Below the pieces are notes generated by a model. It ran no database searches, was not told the DNA's origin, and was given only the letters and a program-made list of their open reading frames with translations. From the NCBI GenBank assembly GCA_963799045.1, contig CAWCVN010000004.1:552645-576644 (forward strand): 24,000 nt of DNA. Direction: 5' to 3'. Of this stretch, positions 1 to 23,296 are shown one piece after another (positions within the stretch are counted from its first letter, which is position 1; the number at the start of each line of letters is the position of its first letter). A program made the position numbers and the translations under genes. The stretch comes from an uncultured Actinomycetota bacterium. Its GTDB lineage: Bacteria; Actinomycetota; Actinomycetes; Mycobacteriales; Jatrophihabitantaceae.

Positions 1-236
1 GTGTGCCGCGGCCCGGCCGGCGGGTGCCCGCTCGGCCTCGCCTCCCCCGGGTTCCGGCGCGGCGGTTGCTTGCGCATCGCCGTGCGCACCAGGCCCAACA
101 GCACGCCGGCGACCGGCACCGCGATGAGGAACCGGATCACGGCGACGTCCACGCCCACGGTCTGGTCGACCAACGCCCGCCAGAGCGTCGGTGCCGAGAA
201 CACCAGCGCACACAGCAGCACGGAACCGCGGAACAT
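1..236 (-). CDS. hypothetical small membrane protein, N-terminal part only (runs off the left edge)
   Basis: Absent from the ORF track because it leaves the window. The reverse complement from ATG at 236 reads MFRGSVLLCALVFSAPTLWRALVDQTVGVDVAVIRFLIAVPVAGVLLGLVRTAMRKQPPRRNPGE... It has two hydrophobic stretches and GC3-rich codons. Its ATG shares one base with the TGA of the upstream flhF-like gene (TGATG, 234-238). No family recognised, and it is not MinD/FlhG-like. Confidence 0.45.
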   Translation of the reverse strand, partial: MFRGSVLLCALVFSAPTLWRALVDQTVGVDVAVIRFLIAVPVAGVLLGLVRTAMRKQPPRRNPGEARPSGHPPAGPRH

Positions 237-1021
237 CACGCAGCCGACTCCTCGAGCCTGGTCAGCAGCAGCAGGGCCCAGTTCGTGCGGGTTGCCGGGC
301 GGCCGTCGAGAAGCGCAACCGGGACGTCCAGCTCCCAGACGCTTGCCGGGCTGGCCGTGCGCGCGGCGCCGGTGACGACGAGCGCAGTTGGAGTGCCCAG
401 TTCGTCCACGCTGCGCGCGGTGTCGCACGACTTGCGGGTGGCGTCCACGTGCAGCCAGAACGTGTCCGCGCCCAGCGCCCGGATGATCGACGCCGGCGGC
501 GGGCCGTCGGGCTCCTCGCCGTCGGCGTAATCGATCTCGTCGGTGCCGATGACGACCAGCGTGCTCTGGTTCGGCAACCGCGCCGGCGAGTTGTCCACCT
601 GCCGGGCGCGGTCGGCGATCGCGGTCGCGTGGCCGACATCGCGGATCTCATGGTCGTCCAGCTCCGCCACGCCGGGGCAGCGGTAGGTCCACACGTGCTC
701 GGGCAGCAGCGCCATCCGCTTGATCACGAGCCGGGCGGTGCGCGCGACCTGGGTCGGCGGCCCGGCCAGCACGACGATCTGGTCGGCTCCCTCCGGCAGC
801 GGCGCTGCCTCGGGCAGCGCGTTCACCAGCTGCTCGACGGCGGCGTAACGGTGCGGCGCGTCGGTGGGGATACGCGCGATCGGCACCCCCAGTTCGGTGA
901 GGCGGCGGCGCAGCGTGAGGTGCTCGTCCGCCTCGTGCAGGCCGGCGATGCTCAGCCTCGCGCGCGCGGCCTGATGCGCCGCGACCTTCTGCTGCGCGGC
1001 CGCGGCCGGCTCCGGCACGGA

Positions 1022-1090
1022 GGTGGGCTCGGCGACGGCTGGCGGGGTGGGCTCGGCGGCGGTGGGCTCGGCGGAGGTGGGCTCGGCGGC
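1022..1090 (-). repeat. 15-bp tandem repeat GGTGGGCTCGGCGNN (4 copies, one separated by 9 bp), encoding AEPT-type repeats
   Basis: Units at 1022-1036, 1046-1060, 1061-1075 and 1076-1090. The protein reads TAAEPTSAEPTAAEPTPPAVAEPT. Confidence 0.8.
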
Positions 1091-1120
1091 GGTTGCCGGG
1101 GTCGGCTCGTGCGCCTCATC

Positions 1121-1237
1121 GGCACTGGCGGCACTGGCGGCACTGACGCCACTGACGGCACTGACGGCACTGACGGCACTGACGGCACTGGCGGCACTGA
1201 CGGCACTGACGGCACTGGCGGCACTGACGGCACTGTC
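1121..1237 (-). repeat. 13 tandem copies of a 9-bp unit (GGCACTGAC / GGCACTGGC) inside the flhF-like linker
   Basis: Counted directly from the sequence as 13 x 9 bp with 1-2 variable positions. It encodes (S-A-V/S-A-A)n in the frame joined to the C-terminal domain, and (V-P-S/V-P-P)n in the frame of ORF 952..2103. Confidence 0.9.
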
Positions 1238-1854
1238 GCGGTTGTTCGACCGGCTGCTGGCGGTCCGGGTACGGGGCCGGCGGACGCGCACGGCCTTGCG
1301 CTTGGTGCCGGCTCGCCCGTCGGCGGCCGGCTCGGGCTGCTGGGCCGGTTGGGCCGGCTCGTGGCGGCCGGCTCGGTGGCGGCCGGCTCGGGTGGGTTCC
1401 CGGTCACGGCCGGCTCGTCGGTGCTCTGGGGAGTTGCGTCGATCGCGCTGCCGGCCGGGGTCTCCGCCGGGGTGTCGATCGTCGCGTCGGCCGGGGTCTT
1501 GGCCGGGGTGTCATCCGCCGTGGTGGACGCGGTGCTGGTTTTGGTGCTGCGGCGCGAGCGGGTGCTCGTCCGCTTGGCCGTCGACCGCGTCGTCTTGCTC
1601 GCCTTGGTCGTCGGTTCGCCCGTCGTCGCGGCGGCCGACTCGTCGGCCGGTTCGCTCGTCGGGGCGGTGGCCGGCGCGCTGGTGCTGCTCACGTCCGGTA
1701 CCTGCGCCGTGGCGGTGTCCTCGGCCCCGGACCGGCCCCCTGCTGCCTGTCCGGTGGCCGGGCCGGCTGCCTCGGCGGAGCTGTTGGCCCGCGTGCGGCG
1801 CGCGCGCGTGGTCTTGGTGGCGGCGGGGGGCTGCTCGGGCTGAACCGGCGCCTG

Positions 1855-1926
1855 CGCCTTGGCCGCGCGCCCCGCCTTGGCCGCGGGCTTCGCCTTGGCC
1901 GCGGGCTTCGCCTTGGCCGCGGACTT
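1855..1926 (-). repeat. 18-bp tandem repeat CGCCTTGGCCGCGGGCTT x4, encoding K-P-A-A-K-A repeats
   Basis: Units at 1855-1872 (variant), 1873-1890, 1891-1908 and 1909-1926. The protein reads KSAAKAKPAAKAKPAAKAGRAAKA. Confidence 0.85.
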
Positions 1927-2387
1927 CGGCTCCGGCTCCTGCGCACCAGCCGGTGCCGTGGCCACCAGCTCGGGCAGGTCCGGGGAGCTCACCGAGGTGG
2001 CGGCGGGGAGCGGGACCCCGCGCTCGGCGGCCTTGCGCGCGGCGATGTCGAGGAGCATGCGGGCGAACTCGACGTTGCCCTGCTCGGCGGCCAGGGCAGG
2101 CACGGCGTCGCTGTCTGTCCGGTTTCCACCATCTCGGCGGCGGCGATGAGCGCATCCAGCGGATCGGTCGGCTCGGTGGCCGGTGCTGTGGGTGCGAGCC
2201 GGCGCTGTCCGGCGGAGGCGGGAACGGTGCTCATCTCATCCTCGATCGTGTAGCGGACGGCGACTCGCGGACGGGCGAAGAATCCGAATACGCCACCTTC
2301 GCGTGCTGTGGCTGACGTCGACGACGCGCACCTGGCCGGGGATACTCCGCATCCAACTCGGCGAGCAGCTCGTCGAGGTCGTAGCCT

Positions 2388-4444
2388 TCACGAAACAAGG
2401 TCGCGGACGTCATCGATCATCCCAATCGCGTTGACGGCTACCGAGCCGGTCGACAGCTCGGTGTAGGACATGACAGGCAGTGCCGGCACCGACAGCCGCA
2501 CCAGGCGGCGAAGCGGCAGCCGGATCTGCGCCGCGCAGACGAGCACCGGCTTGTGGCCGCGCGCGGTCTCGGTGTTGTAGCGCTCGGTGATCGAGTTGAT
2601 CAGCGACTCGGCCAGGCCCGGGTCCAGGACGAGCTGCGCACCGCCGTCGCCGGGGCGCACCGACTCGAGCATCGATTGCTGCAGCCGGGGCTCGATGGTG
2701 AGCACGTCCAGCGTCCCGTCGCTGGCACAGGCTGGCGGCGATGGCGGGAGCCAGCGCCGCGCGGGCGGCCTCGATCAGCCGGTCGGGCTCGGTGCTCGAC
2801 CTTGGCGGCGACGGACAGCGCCTCGTAGATGCGCACGAGGTCGCGGACCGAGACGCCCTCGTCGAGCAGCGCGTGCAGCACCCGCTGGATCTCGCCGAGG
2901 CTGAGCAGCGCCGGGGTGAGGTCCTCGACGACCACCGGGTGGGTGCGCTTGAGCACGCGGGTCGCGGCGGCGACATCCTCGCGGCCGAGCAGGCGGCTCG
3001 CGTACTGGCGGACGACCTCCGACAGATGGGTGATGATCAGCGAGGAGCGGTCGACGACGGTCGCGCCCAGCAACTCGGCCTGGCCGCGCAGCTCGACGCG
3101 GCAGCCAGCGTCCGGCCAGGCCGAACACCGGTTCGCGGGCCGCGCGGCCCGGGCAGGCCGTCGAGGCCGTCACCGATAGCGAGGACCATGCCGACGGGGG
3201 CCTCGCCGCGGGCCAGCTCGACGCCGTTGATGTTGACCGCGTAGGTGGCGTGCGGCAGCGTCACGCTGTCGCGCGTGCGCACCGCGGGCATGACCACGCC
3301 CAGCTCGCCGGCCAGCGAGCGCCGCAGCGCCCGGACGCGGTCGAGCAGGTCGGCGCCGGGGCCGTCCACGAGGGGCACCAGGTCGGGGGACAGGACCAGC
3401 TCCAGCGGGTCCACGACCAGCTCGCCGAGCAGCGTCTCCTCGGCGTCGGGAGCCGGGAGCGTCGGCGGCGACCGCCTGGCCGTCGGCGCCCGCCTCGTCG
3501 GCCTGGCCGGGCTTGGGCAGCCGGGAGGCGAAGAAGAACAGCATCCCGCCGACGACGATGAACGGCAGCTTGGGCAGGCCGGGTACCAGGCACAGCAGCA
3601 GCGCCGCGCCGGCGGCGATCGTCAGCGCCCGGCGCTGGCTGCCCAGCTGGCGGGAGACGAGCGTGCCCATGTCGTCGGCGTCGCTCGAGCGCGTCACGAT
3701 CAGGCCGGTCGACACCGAGAGCAGCAGCGCGGGGATCTGGCTGACCAGGCCGTCGCCGACGCTGAGCAGGCTGTACTTCGACAGCGCCTGGCCGAACGTC
3801 AGGTGGTGCTGCACCATCCCGATGACGAACCCGCCGATCAGGTTGATGAAGGTGATCATGATGGCGGCGATCGCGTCACCCTTGACGAAGCGGGTCGCTC
3901 CGTCCATCGCGCCGTAGAAGTCCGCCTCGGCGGCGATCTCCGACCGGCGCTTGCGGGCGGTCGACTCGTCGATCAGGCCGGCGTTGAGGTCGGCGTCGAT
4001 CGCCATCTGCTTGCCGGGCATCGCGTCGAGGGTGAAGCGCGCGCCGACCTCGGCGACGCGGCCGGCGCCGTTGGTGATGACGACGAACTGGATGACCAGC
4101 AGGATCGCGAAGATCACCAGTCCGATGACGAGCGAGCCGCCGATGACGAAGTGACCGAAGGCGCTGATCACGTGGCCGGCGAAGCCGTCGGTGAGCACCA
4201 GCCGGGTGGCGCTGATGTTCAGCGCCAGGCGGAACAGCGTGGCCACCAGTAGCAGGGACGGGAAGCTGGAGAAGTCGAGGGCGCGCTGGACGTACATCGA
4301 CACCAGCACGACCAGCACGGCGCCGGTGATGTTGCCCGCGATCAGGATGTCGAGCAGGGTGGCCGGCATGGGCACGACCAGCATGACGACGATGGCGACG
4401 ACCCCGATGGGTACTGCCAGCTGACTCAGCCTGCTCGTCTTCAC
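2388..4444 (-). pseudogene. flhA: flagellar type III export gate protein FlhA; five +1 frame breaks as sequenced
   Basis: GTG start at 4444 with AGAGGGG upstream. The N-terminal TM domain is unmistakable (MKTSRLSQLAVPIGVV..., FTLDAMPGKQMAIDADLNAGLIDE, FYGAMDGATRFVKGDAIA, LLSVGDGLVSQIPALLLS). The cytoplasmic domain continues through five other ORF-track frames: DPLELVLSPDLVPLVD, REPVFGLAGRWLP, LLGATVVDRSSLIITHLSEVV, TEPDRLIEAARAALAP, and DVLTIEPRLQQSMLE...VLVCAAQIRLPLRRL. The 2057-nt span equals 683 codons plus stop plus 5 extra bases. Confidence 0.9.
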
Positions 4445-4470
4445 GGCGCCCCTCTTGCCAGTACAGGTTT

Positions 4471-4504
4471 GTCGGATACCTGTGCAATCTGTGGGGTATC
4501 CGAC
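4471..4504. promoter_or_regulatory. perfect 10-bp inverted repeat in the divergent flhA / GT2 control region
   Basis: GTCGGATACC (4471-4480), a 14-nt spacer, then GGTATCCGAC (4495-4504). It sits in the least GC-rich stretch of the window, 27-60 nt upstream of the flhA GTG and 54-110 nt upstream of the GT2 start candidates. Confidence 0.4.
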
Positions 4505-4557
4505 CCCGTACTACGCGCCGTCCTGGCAATCGTTCCATCGGCAGCGCCCGCAGCGAC

Positions 4558-5820
4558 TTGAGGACCCGGTCCGGGCCGACTCAACACCGGCGCCGGCGCG
4601 CCGATTCATTAGGCGTGCTGCTTGCTGCCTGTTTGATCGTCAAGGACGCCGCGTCGACCCTGCCCCGGTGCCTGAAGTCGCTGCGCGGGCTGGTCGAGGA
4701 GGTCGTCGTCTACGACACCGGCTCGAGCGACGACAGCTGCGCGATCGCCCGCGATCACGGCGCCACGGTCGTGCAGGGCTACTGGGACGACGACTTCGCC
4801 CGGGCCCGCAACGACGCGCTTGCCGCGGTGCGGGCGGACTGGGTGCTGAGCATCGACGCCGACGAGCACGTGGAGGGCGACCCGGACCGGCTGCGGTCCT
4901 ACGTCGCGGACCTGGCCGCCGCGGGTGCCGACGGCCCGGCCCTGGTGGCCCTCGAGCGGTCCGACATCCTGCCCGACGCGTCCGGTTCCTACCGCTTCCG
5001 CACCCCGCGGCTGTTCCGGCGGTCCGGCGCGGTGTGGGAGGGGCGGGTCCACGAGACCGTCGAGGTCCGTGACACCCACGGCCGCGAGAGCGCCGTCACC
5101 GGCTGCGACCCGGCGGTGCTGCGCCTCGTGCACGACGGGTACGCCGACGCCGCGACCGCCCGCGCCAAGGCACGGCGCAACGCCGCGATCGGCCTGAGCG
5201 AGGTCGAGCAGCTGCGGGCCGACCCGGCGACGCCCCCGGCCCGGCTCGCGCGGGCCCTGGTCGACCTCGGCCGCAGCCTGGTTGCCGCCAACGACTCGGC
5301 GTCCGCGGTGTACGCCTTCGAGGCCGTCCGGATCCTGGTCTCGGGCGGGCCGATGTGGCTGCGGGCGACCGACCACCTCGCCCGGGCCCGGCTGCAGACC
5401 GGCGACTTCGACGTCGCCCGCGAGCTGGTTGCCGAGCTGCGCGAGCGGGGCGCCGACTCCCAGTACTGCGACTGGCTGCTGGCCCAGGCCCTGGCGCAGA
5501 GCGGCTCGCCGGAGCGGGCCGCCGAGCTGCTCGCGGCCATCACCGAGCTGGAGGACACCGGCGGGCACTGCTACGACCTCGGGCCGGTGGTCGAGTTCGA
5601 GGCGCTGGCGCACGCCCTGAACGGTGACGTGCGGGCGGCGGTGCGCGCCATGCTGACGGCGATGATCCGCTACGGGCGCATCGGGGACCGCGCCGAGCTG
5701 GTGCGCAGCTGGTGGGGAGACGGCGACACCGGCGGCCTGGTGGCCGAGGCCCGCGGCGTCGGGGGGCCTCACCTCGAGCAGGTGCTGGCCGTGCTGGTCT
5801 CCCAGCCCGTCGGCGCCTGA
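4558..5820 (+). CDS. family 2 glycosyltransferase with a C-terminal helical-repeat (TPR-like) domain; candidate flagellin glycosyltransferase
   Basis: Only credible plus-strand gene, and it is intact. GT2 signature: ACLIVKDAASTLPRCLKSLRGLVEEVVVYDTGSSDDSCAIARDHGATV, WDDDFARARNDAL, and the DXD-type WVLSIDADEHV. The C-terminal ~200 aa is alpha-helical and repeat-like (LARALVDLGRSLVAAND..., LLAQALAQSGSPERAAELL). The track start is TTG at 4558. GTG at 4615 (VLLAACLIVKD) is an equally plausible true start. Confidence 0.8.
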   Translation: MRTRSGPTQHRRRRADSLGVLLAACLIVKDAASTLPRCLKSLRGLVEEVVVYDTGSSDDSCAIARDHGATVVQGYWDDDFARARNDALAAVRADWVLSIDADEHVEGDPDRLRSYVADLAAAGADGPALVALERSDILPDASGSYRFRTPRLFRRSGAVWEGRVHETVEVRDTHGRESAVTGCDPAVLRLVHDGYADAATARAKARRNAAIGLSEVEQLRADPATPPARLARALVDLGRSLVAANDSASAVYAFEAVRILVSGGPMWLRATDHLARARLQTGDFDVARELVAELRERGADSQYCDWLLAQALAQSGSPERAAELLAAITELEDTGGHCYDLGPVVEFEALAHALNGDVRAAVRAMLTAMIRYGRIGDRAELVRSWWGDGDTGGLVAEARGVGGPHLEQVLAVLVSQPVGA

Positions 5821-5841
5821 GCCCGGGTTCAGGGGCTCAGG
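5816..5841. terminator. short hairpin spanning both stop codons of the convergent GT2 and flhB genes
   Basis: CCTGAGCCC (5816-5824) and GGGCTCAGG (5833-5841) form a perfect 9-bp inverted repeat with an 8-nt loop. The two TGA stops (5818-5820 on plus, 5837-5839 on minus) are inside the arms. The intergenic gap is only 16 bp. Confidence 0.35.
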
Positions 5842-6962
5842 TGGTGGGGGCGAGGGTGCGGACGGTGTGGGTGCCCATCACCGAGCCGCGCTTGCGCAGC
5901 GTCATGATGAACGCCAGCACGGTGGCGACCGCCTTGTACAGCTCGGGCGGGATCTCCTGGCCGATCTCGACGCTCTGGTAGAGCGTGCGGGCCAGCGCGA
6001 CGTCGCGCACCATCGGCACCCGGTGCTTGTCGGCCAGCTCGCGGATCTTCGCCGCCAGGTGGTCGCCGCCCTTGGCCACGACACGCGGCGCGCCGCGCTT
6101 GGGCTCGTACCGCAGCGCCACCGCCACGTGCGTCGGGTTCACGACCACGACGTCGGCGTGCCTGATGTCGGCCAGCATCCGGTTGCGGGCCATCGCCAGC
6201 GCCCGCGCCCGCCGCTGGCCCTTGATGTGCGGGTCGCCCTCGGCGTTCTTGAACTCGTCCTTGACCTCCTGCTTGGTCATCTTCAGCGGACTTGTTGTTG
6301 CGGCGGTGCACGACGATGAAGTCGGCCGATCGGCCATCGACGATGCCGGCCGCGGCCGCGTAGCGCAGGACGACGAGCGCGGTGCCGGCCGCCGCACCCA
6401 GCAGCGTCGCCAGCGACATCGAGCCCGGCGCCGTACAGCGTCGGGATCAGCTGGCGGACCGCCACGTAGACGACGAGCGGCAGCAGCGCGGTCTTCAGCA
6501 GCGCCTTGACCAGCTCCCACAGCGCGTGGGGGCCGAAGATCCGCTTGATGCCCGAGAGGGGGTTCAGGCGCTTGACCTGCGGCTTGAGCGCCTTCGGGGA
6601 GAACCAGATGCCTCCCTGCAGCGCCACCGAGACGATCGCGATGCCGGCGATCAGCAGCACCATGGGCAGCAGGGCGGCGAAGGCCGATGACGCCGCAACG
6701 TCGGGCGTCGATCAGCGCGGTGGCGACGTCCGGGGTGCGGATCACCGCCCCGCGCGAACCAGGGAGTCGGTGGCGTTGCTCAGCACGGTGCGGACGACGC
6801 GCGGCAGCACGAATGTCGCCGCCATCAGCCCAGCCAGGACCCCAGCTCGCGGGTGTTGCCGATCTGCCCGTCCCGCCGCGCCTTCTTGCGACGCTTCGGG
6901 GTGGGCTTCTCGGTCTTCTCCCCGCCGCCACCTCCTCCGCCGCTCACCGGGCGCCGCTGCAT
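5837..6962 (-). pseudogene. flhB: flagellar export switch protein FlhB; five frame breaks as sequenced
   Basis: The N-terminus (ATG 6962 or GTG 6947) reads ..GGGGGGGEKTEKPTPKRRKKARRDGQIGNTRELGSW. TM segments follow: LMAATFVLPRVVRTVL and SSAFAALLPMVLLIAGIAIVSVALQGGIWFSPKALKPQVKRLNPLSGIKRIFG. The C-terminal domain reads LKMTKQEVKDEFKNAEGDPHIKGQRRA...VVVNPTHVAVALRY, which contains the NPTH autocleavage motif. The pieces lie in frames of ORFs 5837..6931, 6283..6663 and 5829..6419, plus two unlisted stretches. Confidence 0.9.
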
Positions 6963-6981
6963 CGGGGTTGCATCCGGGTGT

Positions 6982-7748
6982 TCATCCGGTCACCGCCGAG
7001 ACGAGCTGGTTGGCCCGGTCGGCCAGCTGCACGACCGTCTCCGGCATCAGGGTCAGGCCCAGGTCCGACCAGCAGCAGGGTCAGGCCGATCTTGATCGGG
7101 AAGCTCATCGTGAAGGCGTTCAGCTGCGGCGCGATGCGGTTCAGGACGCCCAGCGCGAGGTCGGCGATGAACAGCACGACGAGCAGCGGTCCGGCGATCT
7201 GCAGCGCGGAGACGAACATCTCGGGCATCGTGGAGGTCAGGGCGCTGGTCCAGCTGGGACAGCGACAGCGTGGCGTCCAGCGGGATCGCGTCGAACGTGC
7301 GCAGGAAGCCCTGGAAGATCAACAGGTGCGCGTCCGTGGCGAAGATCAGCGTCGTGCACAGCAGCGCGTAGAAGCGGCCGAGCACCGAGGTCATCGTCGT
7401 CGTCAACGGGTCGTACGCGGCCGAGAGCGAGAAGCCGCCGAACAGGTCGAGCAGCCCGCCGGCGACCTCCACCGCGCTGAACAGCAGCCGGGTGAGGAAG
7501 CCCAGCGCGGCGCCGACGAGGACCTGCTCGATCAGCGTGCCGGCGAGCGGGGACGATCTGCGCCGCCGGCGCGTGCAGGCGCGCTGGGCGGGAACGAGGG
7601 CGAGCGCGAGCCCGACCGAGAGGACCGTCTTCACCGTGGCCGGGATGCCCCCGGTCGCGACCGGCGGGGCGAAGGTCATCCACGCCAGCACCCGCGCGCT
7701 GACCAGCAGCAGCGCGACGAGCGAGGAGGTGGGGACGGCGAACTGCAC
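6982..7748 (-). pseudogene. fliR: flagellar export gate protein FliR; two +1 frame breaks as sequenced
   Basis: Sits after fliQ and before flhB. The N-terminal two thirds come from ORF 7053..7748 (LVALLLVSARVLAWMTFAPP..., LIEQVLVGAALGFLTRLLFSAVEVAGGLLD). It continues in ORF 6944..7228 (FVSALQIAGPLLVVLFIADLALGVLNRIAPQLNAFTMSFPIKIGLTLLLVG). The tail LGLTLMPETVVQLADRANQLVSAVTG is in a third frame, with stop TGA at 6982-6984. Confidence 0.85.
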
Positions 7749-7751
7749 GGC

Positions 7752-8021
7752 TCAGCCCAGCAGGCTCGGGATGGAGTGGTAGAGCTGCTGGGTGAAGCTG
7801 ACGATCGTGTCGAGCATCCAGTGGCCGCACAGCAGCAGCGCGATGCCGACGCCGACCGCCTTGGGCACGAAGGCGAGGGTGAACTCCTGGATCTGGGTCG
7901 CCGACTGGAACAGCGAGACGGCGAAGCCGATCACCAGCGCGGTCACCAGCGCCGGCGCGGCCAGCTTGGCGGCGACCAGCATGACCTGGAAGCCGATGTG
8001 GATGATCTGGGTGTCGGTCAT
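7752..8021 (-). CDS. fliQ: flagellar export gate protein FliQ (89 aa)
   Basis: ATG at 8021. Sequence is MTDTQIIHIGFQVMLVAAKLAAPALVTALVIGFAVSLFQSATQIQEFTLAFVPK... Size, two TM helices and the position between fliP and fliR are typical. The upstream part of track ORF 7752..8390 is a spurious extension. Confidence 0.9.
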   Translation of the reverse strand: MTDTQIIHIGFQVMLVAAKLAAPALVTALVIGFAVSLFQSATQIQEFTLAFVPKAVGVGIALLLCGHWMLDTIVSFTQQLYHSIPSLLG

Positions 8022-21718: not shown

Positions 21719-23296
21719 TCAGTTCTCCTTGTTCAGCCAGCCGGACAGGATGCGGGCGACGTCGTCGGGCTGCTCCTCGGCCAGGCTGACCAGGGCCCGC
21801 CGCCGCGCGGCGACCTCCTGGACCTCGGTGGCGGTGACCGTCTGCTGTGCCTCGTGCGCCGGCTCGTAGGTGTCGATCGGCTCGCGGAACAGGCCGAAGT
21901 CGTCGTTCGGTTCGGGGTCCGGGTTCTTCTTGCGTCGCCGGCCGGCCAGCCAGGTGCCGAGCACGACGGCCAGCACGAGCGCGATCAGCGCGCCCTGCTT
22001 GATCAGGGAGATCATCTTGGCGTGCGATGCGGCCGCGGCCGCGGCCTTGGCTGCCGCGGCCGCGGCCTTCTGGGCCTGCGACTGTGCCGAGTTGTTGAAC
22101 GGCATGGCCTGGACCGACATCGTGTCGCCGCGCGTGGAGCTGAAGCCGGCGGCGGACTTCACCAGCGACTGGATCGCCGGAACGTTCACGGTCTTCGTGG
22201 TGCCGTTGAGCAGGACCGCGATGGACAGCTGCTTGACCTGGCCCGGGGCGTTCTGCGTGGTCTGCTTCTGCGTGCCCAGCGCGTTGTCCTGGGTGTTGGT
22301 GACCTTCTTGTACTTGCTCGTGCTCTTGCTGCCGGTGGACCCGACTGCGGTGCCGGCGCCGAGCGTGGCGTTGTTGCTGCCGCCGGTGCCGGTGTAGGTC
22401 TCGGTGGTCTTCGACTGCGACAGCGGCGGTGCCTTCTGGCTGTACAGGTAGCTGTCGCTGGTGGTCGTGGTCTGGTTGAAGTCGAGCATCGCGTTGACGG
22501 TGACGACCGCGTTGCCGCTGCCGAGCGAGGCGTCCAGCAGCGCTTGCAGCTTGCTCTGCAGTTGGTTGTCGTAGGCCTGGGTCGCCTGGGACTGCGTGCT
22601 GGTCGCGGTGGCGCTGGTCAGCCCGCTGCCCGGCGCCGCGAGCACGTCGCCGGCCGAGTCGGTGACCGTCACGTCGTTCGAGGACATGTTCGGCACGCTG
22701 GAGCTGACCAGGTAGACGATCGACTGGACCTGCTGGGTGTTCAGCTGCGTGCCGCCGGTCAGCGTGAGCATGACGGCGGCCGTCGGGTTCTGGGTGCCGT
22801 CGTTGAAGACGTTCTGCTGCGGCAGGCCCAGGTGCACGATCGCCGTCTGCACCCCGGACATCGCGTCGATGGTCTTGGCGAGTTCGCCCTCCATCGCCCG
22901 CTGGTAGTCGACCTGCTGCTGGAACTGGGAGGTGGTGACACCCTCCTTGGACAGCAGCGAGTAGCCGGTCTGGTCGGAGTTCGGCAGCCCGGCGGAGCTC
23001 ATGGTGAGCCGGGTGGAGTAGACGTCCGACTGCGGTACGAGGATCTCGGTTCCGGCCTGCGCCAGCTGGTACGGGACCTTCTCGCTGTTGAGCTTGTCGA
23101 CGATCGCGCTGGCGTCGCTCGCGGCGAGGTTGGTGTACAGCGGTGCGTAGGTCGGCTTGGACTTCCAGGTGAAGAACATGACGCCGCCGATCACCAGCGC
23201 GAGCGCGGCGGCGATGGTCACCGCCTTCTGGCCGGCGGAGAAGCCCCGAAAGTCGTTCCACCCGCGCTTGGCGAGTGTCAGCAGCTGGTCTTTCAT
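21719..23296 (-). CDS. fliF: MS-ring protein FliF
   Basis: 525 aa. Matching segments: MKDQLLTLAKRGWNDFRGFSAGQKAVTIAAALALVIGGVMFF, YAPLYTNL...DASAIVDKLNSEKVPYQL, IAVLLNG, and a C-terminal TM helix plus FliG-binding tail (DDVARILSGWLNKEN). Confidence 0.92.
   Translation of the reverse strand: MKDQLLTLAKRGWNDFRGFSAGQKAVTIAAALALVIGGVMFFTWKSKPTYAPLYTNLAASDASAIVDKLNSEKVPYQLAQAGTEILVPQSDVYSTRLTMSSAGLPNSDQTGYSLLSKEGVTTSQFQQQVDYQRAMEGELAKTIDAMSGVQTAIVHLGLPQQNVFNDGTQNPTAAVMLTLTGGTQLNTQQVQSIVYLVSSSVPNMSSNDVTVTDSAGDVLAAPGSGLTSATATSTQSQATQAYDNQLQSKLQALLDASLGSGNAVVTVNAMLDFNQTTTTSDSYLYSQKAPPLSQSKTTETYTGTGGSNNATLGAGTAVGSTGSKSTSKYKKVTNTQDNALGTQKQTTQNAPGQVKQLSIAVLLNGTTKTVNVPAIQSLVKSAAGFSSTRGDTMSVQAMPFNNSAQSQAQKAAAAAAKAAAAAASHAKMISLIKQGALIALVLAVVLGTWLAGRRRKKNPDPEPNDDFGLFREPIDTYEPAHEAQQTVTATEVQEVAARRRALVSLAEEQPDDVARILSGWLNKEN

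Follow-up and report, generated by a model that had tools for sequence, protein, structure and literature searches.

The gene following flhA

The stretch of DNA analyzed here, called the window in the following, comprises 24,000 nucleotides (nt) of contig CAWCVN010000004.1 (assembly GCA_963799045.1) from an uncultured actinobacterium of the Jatrophihabitantaceae and has a G+C content of 68-80%. Its minus strand harbors a flagellar cluster with the genes fliF, fliG, fliI, fliK, motA, fliM, flhB, fliR and flhA, and flhA is followed by a gene for an FlhF-like protein. FlhF is the GTPase that decides on the place and number of flagella. In current models its GTP cycle is central, and so is the activator FlhG, by which the GTPase activity of FlhF is stimulated. 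The FlhF-like protein of the window appears to have kept the head and the fold of FlhF, but the motifs of the GTPase are lost.

The FlhF-like gene starts with an ATG at position 2413, which lies 26 nt inside the 3' end of flhA, and its stop codon is located at 236-238 (Table 1). The encoded protein has three parts: it begins with a head at the N-terminus, continues in a long linker of repetitive sequence and ends with an intact C-terminal domain of 254 residues. The final 351 codons (open reading frame (ORF) 236..1291) are uninterrupted, and upstream thereof the reading frame switches four times. All peptide strings quoted in a preliminary description of this DNA, which was made from the letters alone and proposed an FlhF homologue with degenerate GTPase motifs, were recovered by three-frame translation. 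The N-terminal string turned out to be a composite from three frames, namely MTSATLFREGYDLDELLAELDAEYP, GQVRVVDVSHS and REGGVFGFFARPRVAV. The intact C-terminal frame contains IVVLAGPPTQVARTA, LVVIGTDE, HVDATRK, LVVTGAAR and PVALLDGRP.

Table 1. Coordinates of the FlhF-like gene, its parts and motif remnants, and the two adjoining genes within the window.
Feature	Position	Strand	Description	Evidence
FlhF-like gene, whole	236..2413	-	~725 codons in four frame pieces	ORF list, three-frame translation
N-terminal head	2238..2413	-	~58 residues, FlhF FliG-interaction-domain (FID) type; two single-base insertions	hhalign, AlphaFold2 topology, TIGR03499
Linker	1001..2237	-	low-complexity Ala/Pro/Thr/Lys/Ser, tandem repeats; both single-base deletions	translation, repeats
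NG-like domain	239..1000	-	intact (254 residues); fold of an SRP GTPase, GTPase motifs absent	AlphaFold2, Foldseek, PDB profile, hhalign
P-loop (G1) remnant	737..763	-	GPPTQVART; canonical GPTGxGKTT	hhalign mapping
G3 remnant	536..547	-	GTDE; canonical DTAG	hhalign; family consensus A-T-D-x
Signature	422..445	-	DATRKxxD, nearly invariant; FlhF strand equivalent SATTKxxD	hhalign, 59-member alignment
G4 remnant	362..373	-	TGAA; canonical TKLD	hhalign; family consensus [HT][GS]Ax
Small two-helix membrane protein, 5' part	1..236	-	MFRGSVLLCALVF...; gene runs off the window start	translation; no Pfam family
flhA	2388..4444	-	four frame pieces, three breaks	

An SRP-type fold without GTPase motifs

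The C-terminal domain was modeled with AlphaFold2 using a profile of 59 family domain sequences (A1), which resulted in a predicted local distance difference test score (pLDDT) of 93.5 and a predicted template modeling score of 0.86. In a Foldseek comparison of this model with the PDB, the best 50 matches were all signal recognition particle (SRP)-type NG domains, belonging to SRP54/Ffh, FtsY or FlhF, with E-values from 2.2e-7 and template modeling (TM) scores of 0.5-0.6. On sequence level, the A1 profile retrieved SRP54 NG domains first from the PDB (E-value 0.002), and the alignment spans the region from G3 to G4. A profile-profile alignment (hhalign) of A1 with canonical actinobacterial FlhF scored 88.6% (E-value 2.7e-6) over 170 columns. 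The block-by-block correspondence with the SRP-type NG domain claimed in the preliminary description was thus reproduced by an independent method, and the structure prediction, compared with FlhF, FtsY and Ffh, led to the same fold.

Curated models do not capture this domain. The scans of close orthologues with Pfam and NCBIfam were empty and only distant members touch the model TIGR03499; all 59 domain sequences were also compared with Pfam, with scattered noise as the only outcome. When the source genome was scanned with PF00448 and TIGR03499, only Ffh, FtsY and weak others were found, and the FlhF-like protein stayed below the curated cut-offs.

The hhalign mapping pairs the canonical blocks GPTGVGKT, DTAG, SATSK, TKLD and YLTNGQ with GPPTQVAR, GTDE, DATRK, TGAA and LLDGR of the window. 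Here, the catalytic residues of G1, G3 and G4 are replaced, as had been described, and this is a feature of the whole family. Lysine is present at the P-loop position in 0/59 aligned members, which carry leucine, valine or alanine instead, and the adjacent threonine or serine is kept in 7/59. The aspartate of G3, a position mostly occupied by alanine, is likewise kept in 7/59 members; the lysine position of G4 shows glycine, serine, asparagine or alanine, and the G4 aspartate is found in 3/59. Furthermore, a Walker A motif (GxxGxGK[ST], or even the relaxed form GxxxxGK[ST]) occurs in 0/150 of the best family representatives. Since the P-loop lysine and the Walker A motif are missing throughout these sets, the loss is conserved and does not reflect the decay of one copy.

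Other positions have become near-invariant, namely W182, D186-A187-x-x-K190-x-x-D193, P218-A219, P227, D232-G233 and W241, and the replacement motifs DATRKxxD, SPA and LDGRP are found across the family. Within DATRKxxD, the first aspartate is present in 57/59, the alanine in 58/59, the lysine in 57/59 and the final aspartate in 59/59 members. For 64 loci of the Actinoplanes/Planobispora type, the ratio of nonsynonymous to synonymous substitution rates (dN/dS) amounts to ~0.35 for the C-terminal domain and to 0.14 for the C-terminus of FlhA in the same pairs, as crude pairwise values from non-independent pairs with dS near saturation. Judged from this comparison, the C-terminal domain is constrained, yet faster-evolving than a core component of the flagellum.

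From the observed absence of the motifs it is inferred that the FlhF-like protein very probably can neither bind nor hydrolyze GTP in the canonical way. A re-tuned switch, in which the domain would still bind a nucleotide or another small ligand via non-canonical residues such as those of DATRKxxD, SPA and LDGRP, would fit to the several near-invariant charged motifs lining the region that matches the old nucleotide pocket, and also to the purifying selection on the domain. However, the P-loop lysine never appears in 59 diverse members, the neighboring threonine or serine, the G3 aspartate and the G4 lysine and aspartate are mostly gone, none of 150 proteins contains a Walker A motif and the GTPase activator FlhG was not found. 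Such a switch is therefore regarded as unlikely.

Origin of the frame breaks

The four frame switches of the FlhF-like gene can be located with different precision. The first (frame 0 to 1) is caused by a surplus C in a CCCC run at 2338-2341, and the second (1 to 2) lies at 2304-2307, where four bases, agca, are read in place of one codon in the orthologues. For the third (2 to 1) a single base is missing somewhere within 2080-2120, and for the fourth (1 to 0) a single base is missing somewhere within 1000-1510, in the tandem repeats. The net shift over all four is zero. The neighboring genes are also broken, with three breaks in flhA, three in flhB and two in fliR (region 2388-7770), and the genes past 10 kb are intact.

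To survey the extent of such breaks in the assembly, 20 regions distributed over the complete genome G024 of the same family were sampled, which gave 169 long ORFs; 100 of these ORFs have a clear orthologue here. Frame changes were observed in 11/100 orthologues genome-wide, amounting to 18 changes in 116 kb with a patchy distribution. Here, clpX is 95.6% identical to its counterpart in G024 and contains two shifts, and hisD is 91.6% identical and contains four. The broken pieces of the window display 77-93% identity to the intact G024 orthologues, and the aligned pieces are free of in-frame stops. The assembly consists of 8 contigs with a marker completeness of 81.5%. In a search of sequencing runs, the only match was to a wetland metagenome, at 6% of the words.

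Because clpX and hisD are broken likewise, the comparison with orthologues suggests that the four frame breaks of the FlhF-like gene are most likely indel errors of the assembly and not biology, and therefore the organism probably makes the full FlhF-like protein. If the breaks were real instead, the FlhF-like gene, flhA, flhB and fliR would be true pseudogenes that decay via frameshifts while motility is being lost. The crowding of 12 frame changes in window positions 236-7800, about 12 times the genome mean of 0.155 per kb, with intact genes past 10 kb, would be in line with this. On the contrary, decay is difficult to reconcile with the high identity of the stop-free pieces to G024, the same patchy breaks in clpX and hisD, and the zero net shift across the FlhF-like gene; furthermore, a completeness of 81.5% despite only 8 contigs is typical of uncorrected long-read indels. 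Only a small probability is thus left for genuine pseudogenes.

Outside the window, patches of single-base indels are present at C1:510-513 kb, C5:759-765 kb and C1:976-978 kb, and genes called on this assembly will come out fragmented.

Relation to FlhF

For the head, an alignment of 43 sequences (A4) was compared with canonical actinobacterial FlhF by hhalign and matched FlhF positions 6-55 with 96.5% (E-value 1e-9). In addition, the N-termini of the distant members P0101 and P0058 match TIGR03499 (E-values 5.8e-8 and 8.5e-4), and the FlhF-like N-terminus proposed earlier is thereby substantiated. The AlphaFold2 model of the head of the G024 orthologue displays a beta-alpha-beta-beta topology, as described for the FID. 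In Shewanella, this FliG-interaction domain is made up of the first 44-60 residues of FlhF, and HubP, a polar landmark, is bound by the NG domain (PMC11236974). The head profile retrieved nothing from the PDB sequences.

In basal actinobacteria the gene order is flhA-flhF-flhG; FlhF carries GPTGxGKTT there, and FlhG carries a Walker A motif. When genome G045 was searched in six frames with A1, the canonical FlhF of this genome was the only match listed (E-value 7.9e-9); G045 also carries Ffh- and FtsY-type matches to TIGR03499. The NG domains are 13-20% identical, and long branches would dominate a phylogeny built at this level.

That the gene after flhA is a descendant of FlhF is supported by the homology of the head, by the SRP-type NG fold and by the slot after flhA. 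An origin apart from FlhF, with an Ffh/FtsY-like or other SIMIBI domain recruited independently and fused to an unrelated head, is highly improbable, since despite the placement of Ffh and FtsY over FlhF by Foldseek (8r9r on rank 33) and a PDB sequence profile that matches SRP54 and not FlhF, the head aligns specifically with the N-terminus of FlhF, ATxKxxD, the strand motif, is FlhF-like, A1 matched canonical FlhF alone among the matches listed for G045, and the FlhF slot after flhA is occupied as in basal actinobacteria.

A small membrane protein in place of FlhG

Using a narrower alignment (A3), 80 named loci were collected, which include Jatrophihabitantaceae, Nakamurella, metagenome-assembled genomes of Pseudonocardiales and Frankiales, Actinoplanes, Paractinoplanes, Planobispora and Planomonospora. 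In 74/80 of these loci flhA is located immediately upstream of the FlhF-like gene on the same strand. Downstream, a small membrane protein is encoded in the window, and its ATG at 236 overlaps the stop codon of the FlhF-like gene by one base. A hydrophobic two-helix ORF of 60-82 residues starts -19 to +15 nt from this stop in 73/80 loci, and the earlier statement that a small membrane protein and not FlhG comes next is hence valid well beyond the window. No Pfam match was obtained for this protein at E-values up to 0.01, except a sub-threshold hit to DUF4153 (17 bits versus a cut-off of 27). Its consensus (window 1-236, L005) reads MxRxSVLLxALLxSAP...IRFLIAVPVAA, and it is spread as wide as the FlhF-like gene. 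Beyond the small membrane gene, a DedA-type membrane protein, RNase J and methionine aminopeptidase are encoded; therefore, the flagellar cluster ends there.

The 6 kb to each side of the FlhF-like gene contained FlhG-like genes in 0/80 loci. A search of the source genome with FlhG queries from basal actinobacteria and with MinD models retrieved only Mrp/ApbC, a Wzc-type kinase and generic ParA-like ATPases. All these MinD-like matches lie far from the cluster and none of them exceeds the MinD cut-offs. The genome search for flhG suggested in the preliminary description returned none beside the gene and none elsewhere in this genome, which has a marker completeness of 81.5%.

Distribution of the family

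A HMMER scan of 1.84 billion representatives identified 438 clusters (50% identity) at E-values up to 1e-3. The domain is always C-terminal, and the proteins have a length of 395-936 residues. Intact orthologues after flhA comprise 619 (G002), 546 (G001), 395 (G005) and 442 residues (complete genome G024). All named members that were looked up are annotated as 'hypothetical protein', the closest ones being from Jatrophihabitantaceae.

Among 41 relatives, the FlhF-like protein is present in 10/12 genomes that are positive for FlhA and in 0/29 that are negative. The two FlhA-positive exceptions are G013 and G028. In G013 a 426-residue open frame (stop to stop) follows flhA (L133, G013:C33:10900-15000, positions 345-1622, plus strand), which has an FlhF-type head and a linker without any NG-like domain; the small two-helix membrane protein is still next. 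In G028 (L134, G028:C17:20000-24500, positions 3050-4186, minus strand) a head, a linker and an NG-like remnant of ~100 residues are encoded.

Canonical FlhF scoring above the TIGR03499 cut-off was detected in 11/201 sampled genomes of the phylum, all from basal classes. The motif-dead form is present in G000, G136 and G077 and, within this phylum sample, never shares a genome with canonical FlhF. The four unpublished genomes G127, G088, G159 and G041 are counted in these tallies, all of them without positives. In a census of actinobacterial flagellar genes from 2023, the later classes were scored as lacking FlhF (PMC10746217). The results obtained here agree with this census in that canonical FlhF is seen in basal classes only. 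In contrast to it, the later classes keep a divergent, motif-dead FlhF homologue that is annotated as hypothetical protein. On the basis of these comparisons, the motif-less form is the normal form in flagellated actinomycetes scored without FlhF. A description of it was not found in the searched literature.

Some further observations were made on individual loci and on the linker. Near the G028 locus, on the other strand, fliW, csrA, a sigma-28-like factor and a signal peptidase are encoded. In G021, three matches to the C-terminal domain lie within 6 kb (L011, L015, L016; C9:180316-186386), which may represent a tandem duplicate with one copy in two pieces. The length of the linker varies largely among the orthologues. 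In the window, its repeats lie within 1022-1928 and include 27-nt and 36-nt units, a 9-nt unit with 12.9 copies (1120-1235) encoding Ala/Val/Ser repeats and an 18-nt unit with 4.1 copies (1855-1928) encoding KPAAKA repeats.

Comparison with known systems

Canonical FlhF is the third SRP-type GTPase (TIGR03499, PF00448), for which structures of the NG domain (8R9R) and the FID (9EN1) from Shewanella putrefaciens are available. The motif-less family resembles it in the ~55-residue head, which is homologous by hhalign, in the disordered linker and the NG fold, in the strand motif ATxKxxD and in the position of the gene directly after flhA. It differs in the family-wide loss of G1, G3 and G4 and in scoring below every curated FlhF/SRP54 model. 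Furthermore, the segment from the P-loop helix to the G3 strand comprises ~65 residues and not ~80 as in FlhF, and the gene has no FlhG partner, being translationally coupled to that of a membrane protein with two helices.

In the FlhF-FlhG switch, an SRP-type GTPase is combined with a MinD-type ATPase; FlhF forms a GTP-dependent dimer and the hydrolysis stimulated by FlhG frees FliG to FliM/FliN (PMC12826062). A role at the start of flagellar assembly would presumably be shared by the motif-less family, and the ancestral order flhA-flhF-flhG is seen in basal actinobacteria. In contrast, both the GTPase site and FlhG are missing in the motif-less family; therefore, the logic of this switch cannot run as described.

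A coupled small membrane protein has a precedent in FipA, a protein of 163 residues with one membrane helix and a DUF2802 domain in the cytoplasm, which is a partner of FlhF in gamma-proteobacteria and recruits FlhF to the membrane or the pole (PMC11620751). Here, the similarity is that a small membrane protein is encoded together with flhF. There is no sequence relation; the actinobacterial protein, a candidate partner of the FlhF-like protein, has 60-82 residues, two hydrophobic helices, no DUF2802 and no Pfam family.

Proposed role

Taken together, it is quite likely that the gene encodes a conserved flagellar descendant of FlhF, which has kept the head and an SRP-type NG-shaped body, has lost G1, G3 and G4 family-wide and would act as a constitutive tether. 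By analogy with FlhF of Shewanella, the head would hold FliG and hence the nascent FliF/FliG ring, and the NG-shaped body would attach to a partner in the membrane or to a landmark partner, for which the small membrane protein is a candidate. This would result in a constitutive tether that starts flagellar assembly and operates without a GTP-timed switch or release. A nucleotide-independent role as scaffold or tether is thus inferred from the known systems.

Several observations weigh against this assignment, as does the re-tuned switch discussed above. The window protein gave no Pfam or NCBIfam match at E-values up to 10. A Foldseek search with the 63-residue head model returned no significant match, the FID structure 9en1 being on rank 15 with an E-value of 1.4 and a TM score of 0.63 by target length. 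The NG-like domain evolves ~2.4 times faster than FlhA, and it is missing in G013 and truncated in G028, two flagellated relatives; the NG-like domain may therefore be less essential than the head. FlhG was not found in the source genome, which is itself only 81.5% complete. Two complexes were predicted as well, one pairing the FlhF-like protein and the small membrane protein, the other pairing FliG of G024 and residues 1-70 of the head; both gave a score of 0.00, but as single-sequence predictions with low pLDDT they do not pull in either direction.

On a wider scale, the chances are about even that the later-branching flagellated Actinomycetota (Jatrophihabitantaceae, Nakamurella, Actinoplanes, Planobispora, Planomonospora and others) have swapped the FlhF/FlhG switch for a GTP-independent pseudo-GTPase and a co-translated two-helix membrane protein, which would nucleate or place the basal body. 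If this replacement took place, the published statement that later classes lack FlhF would need correcting, and G013 and G028 would represent a further reduction to a head-plus-linker protein. A family of 438 clusters under purifying selection, which has kept the head and the fold and dropped the nucleotide site as well as FlhG, would furthermore constitute a natural experiment on those functions of FlhF that require GTP. For Actinoplanes, the flagellation of zoospores is under active study, and how number and placement of the flagella are controlled is still an open question (PMC13083903). Here, a 'hypothetical protein' of this genus would gain a name and a testable role.

Other features of the window

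An in-frame stop that had been suspected in fliF proved to be an artifact of the tblastn extension; fliF is intact and starts at 23296. Between flhA and flhB, on the opposite strand, a family-2 glycosyltransferase with tetratricopeptide repeats is encoded (4558-5820, plus strand), which may be an enzyme for the glycosylation of flagellin.

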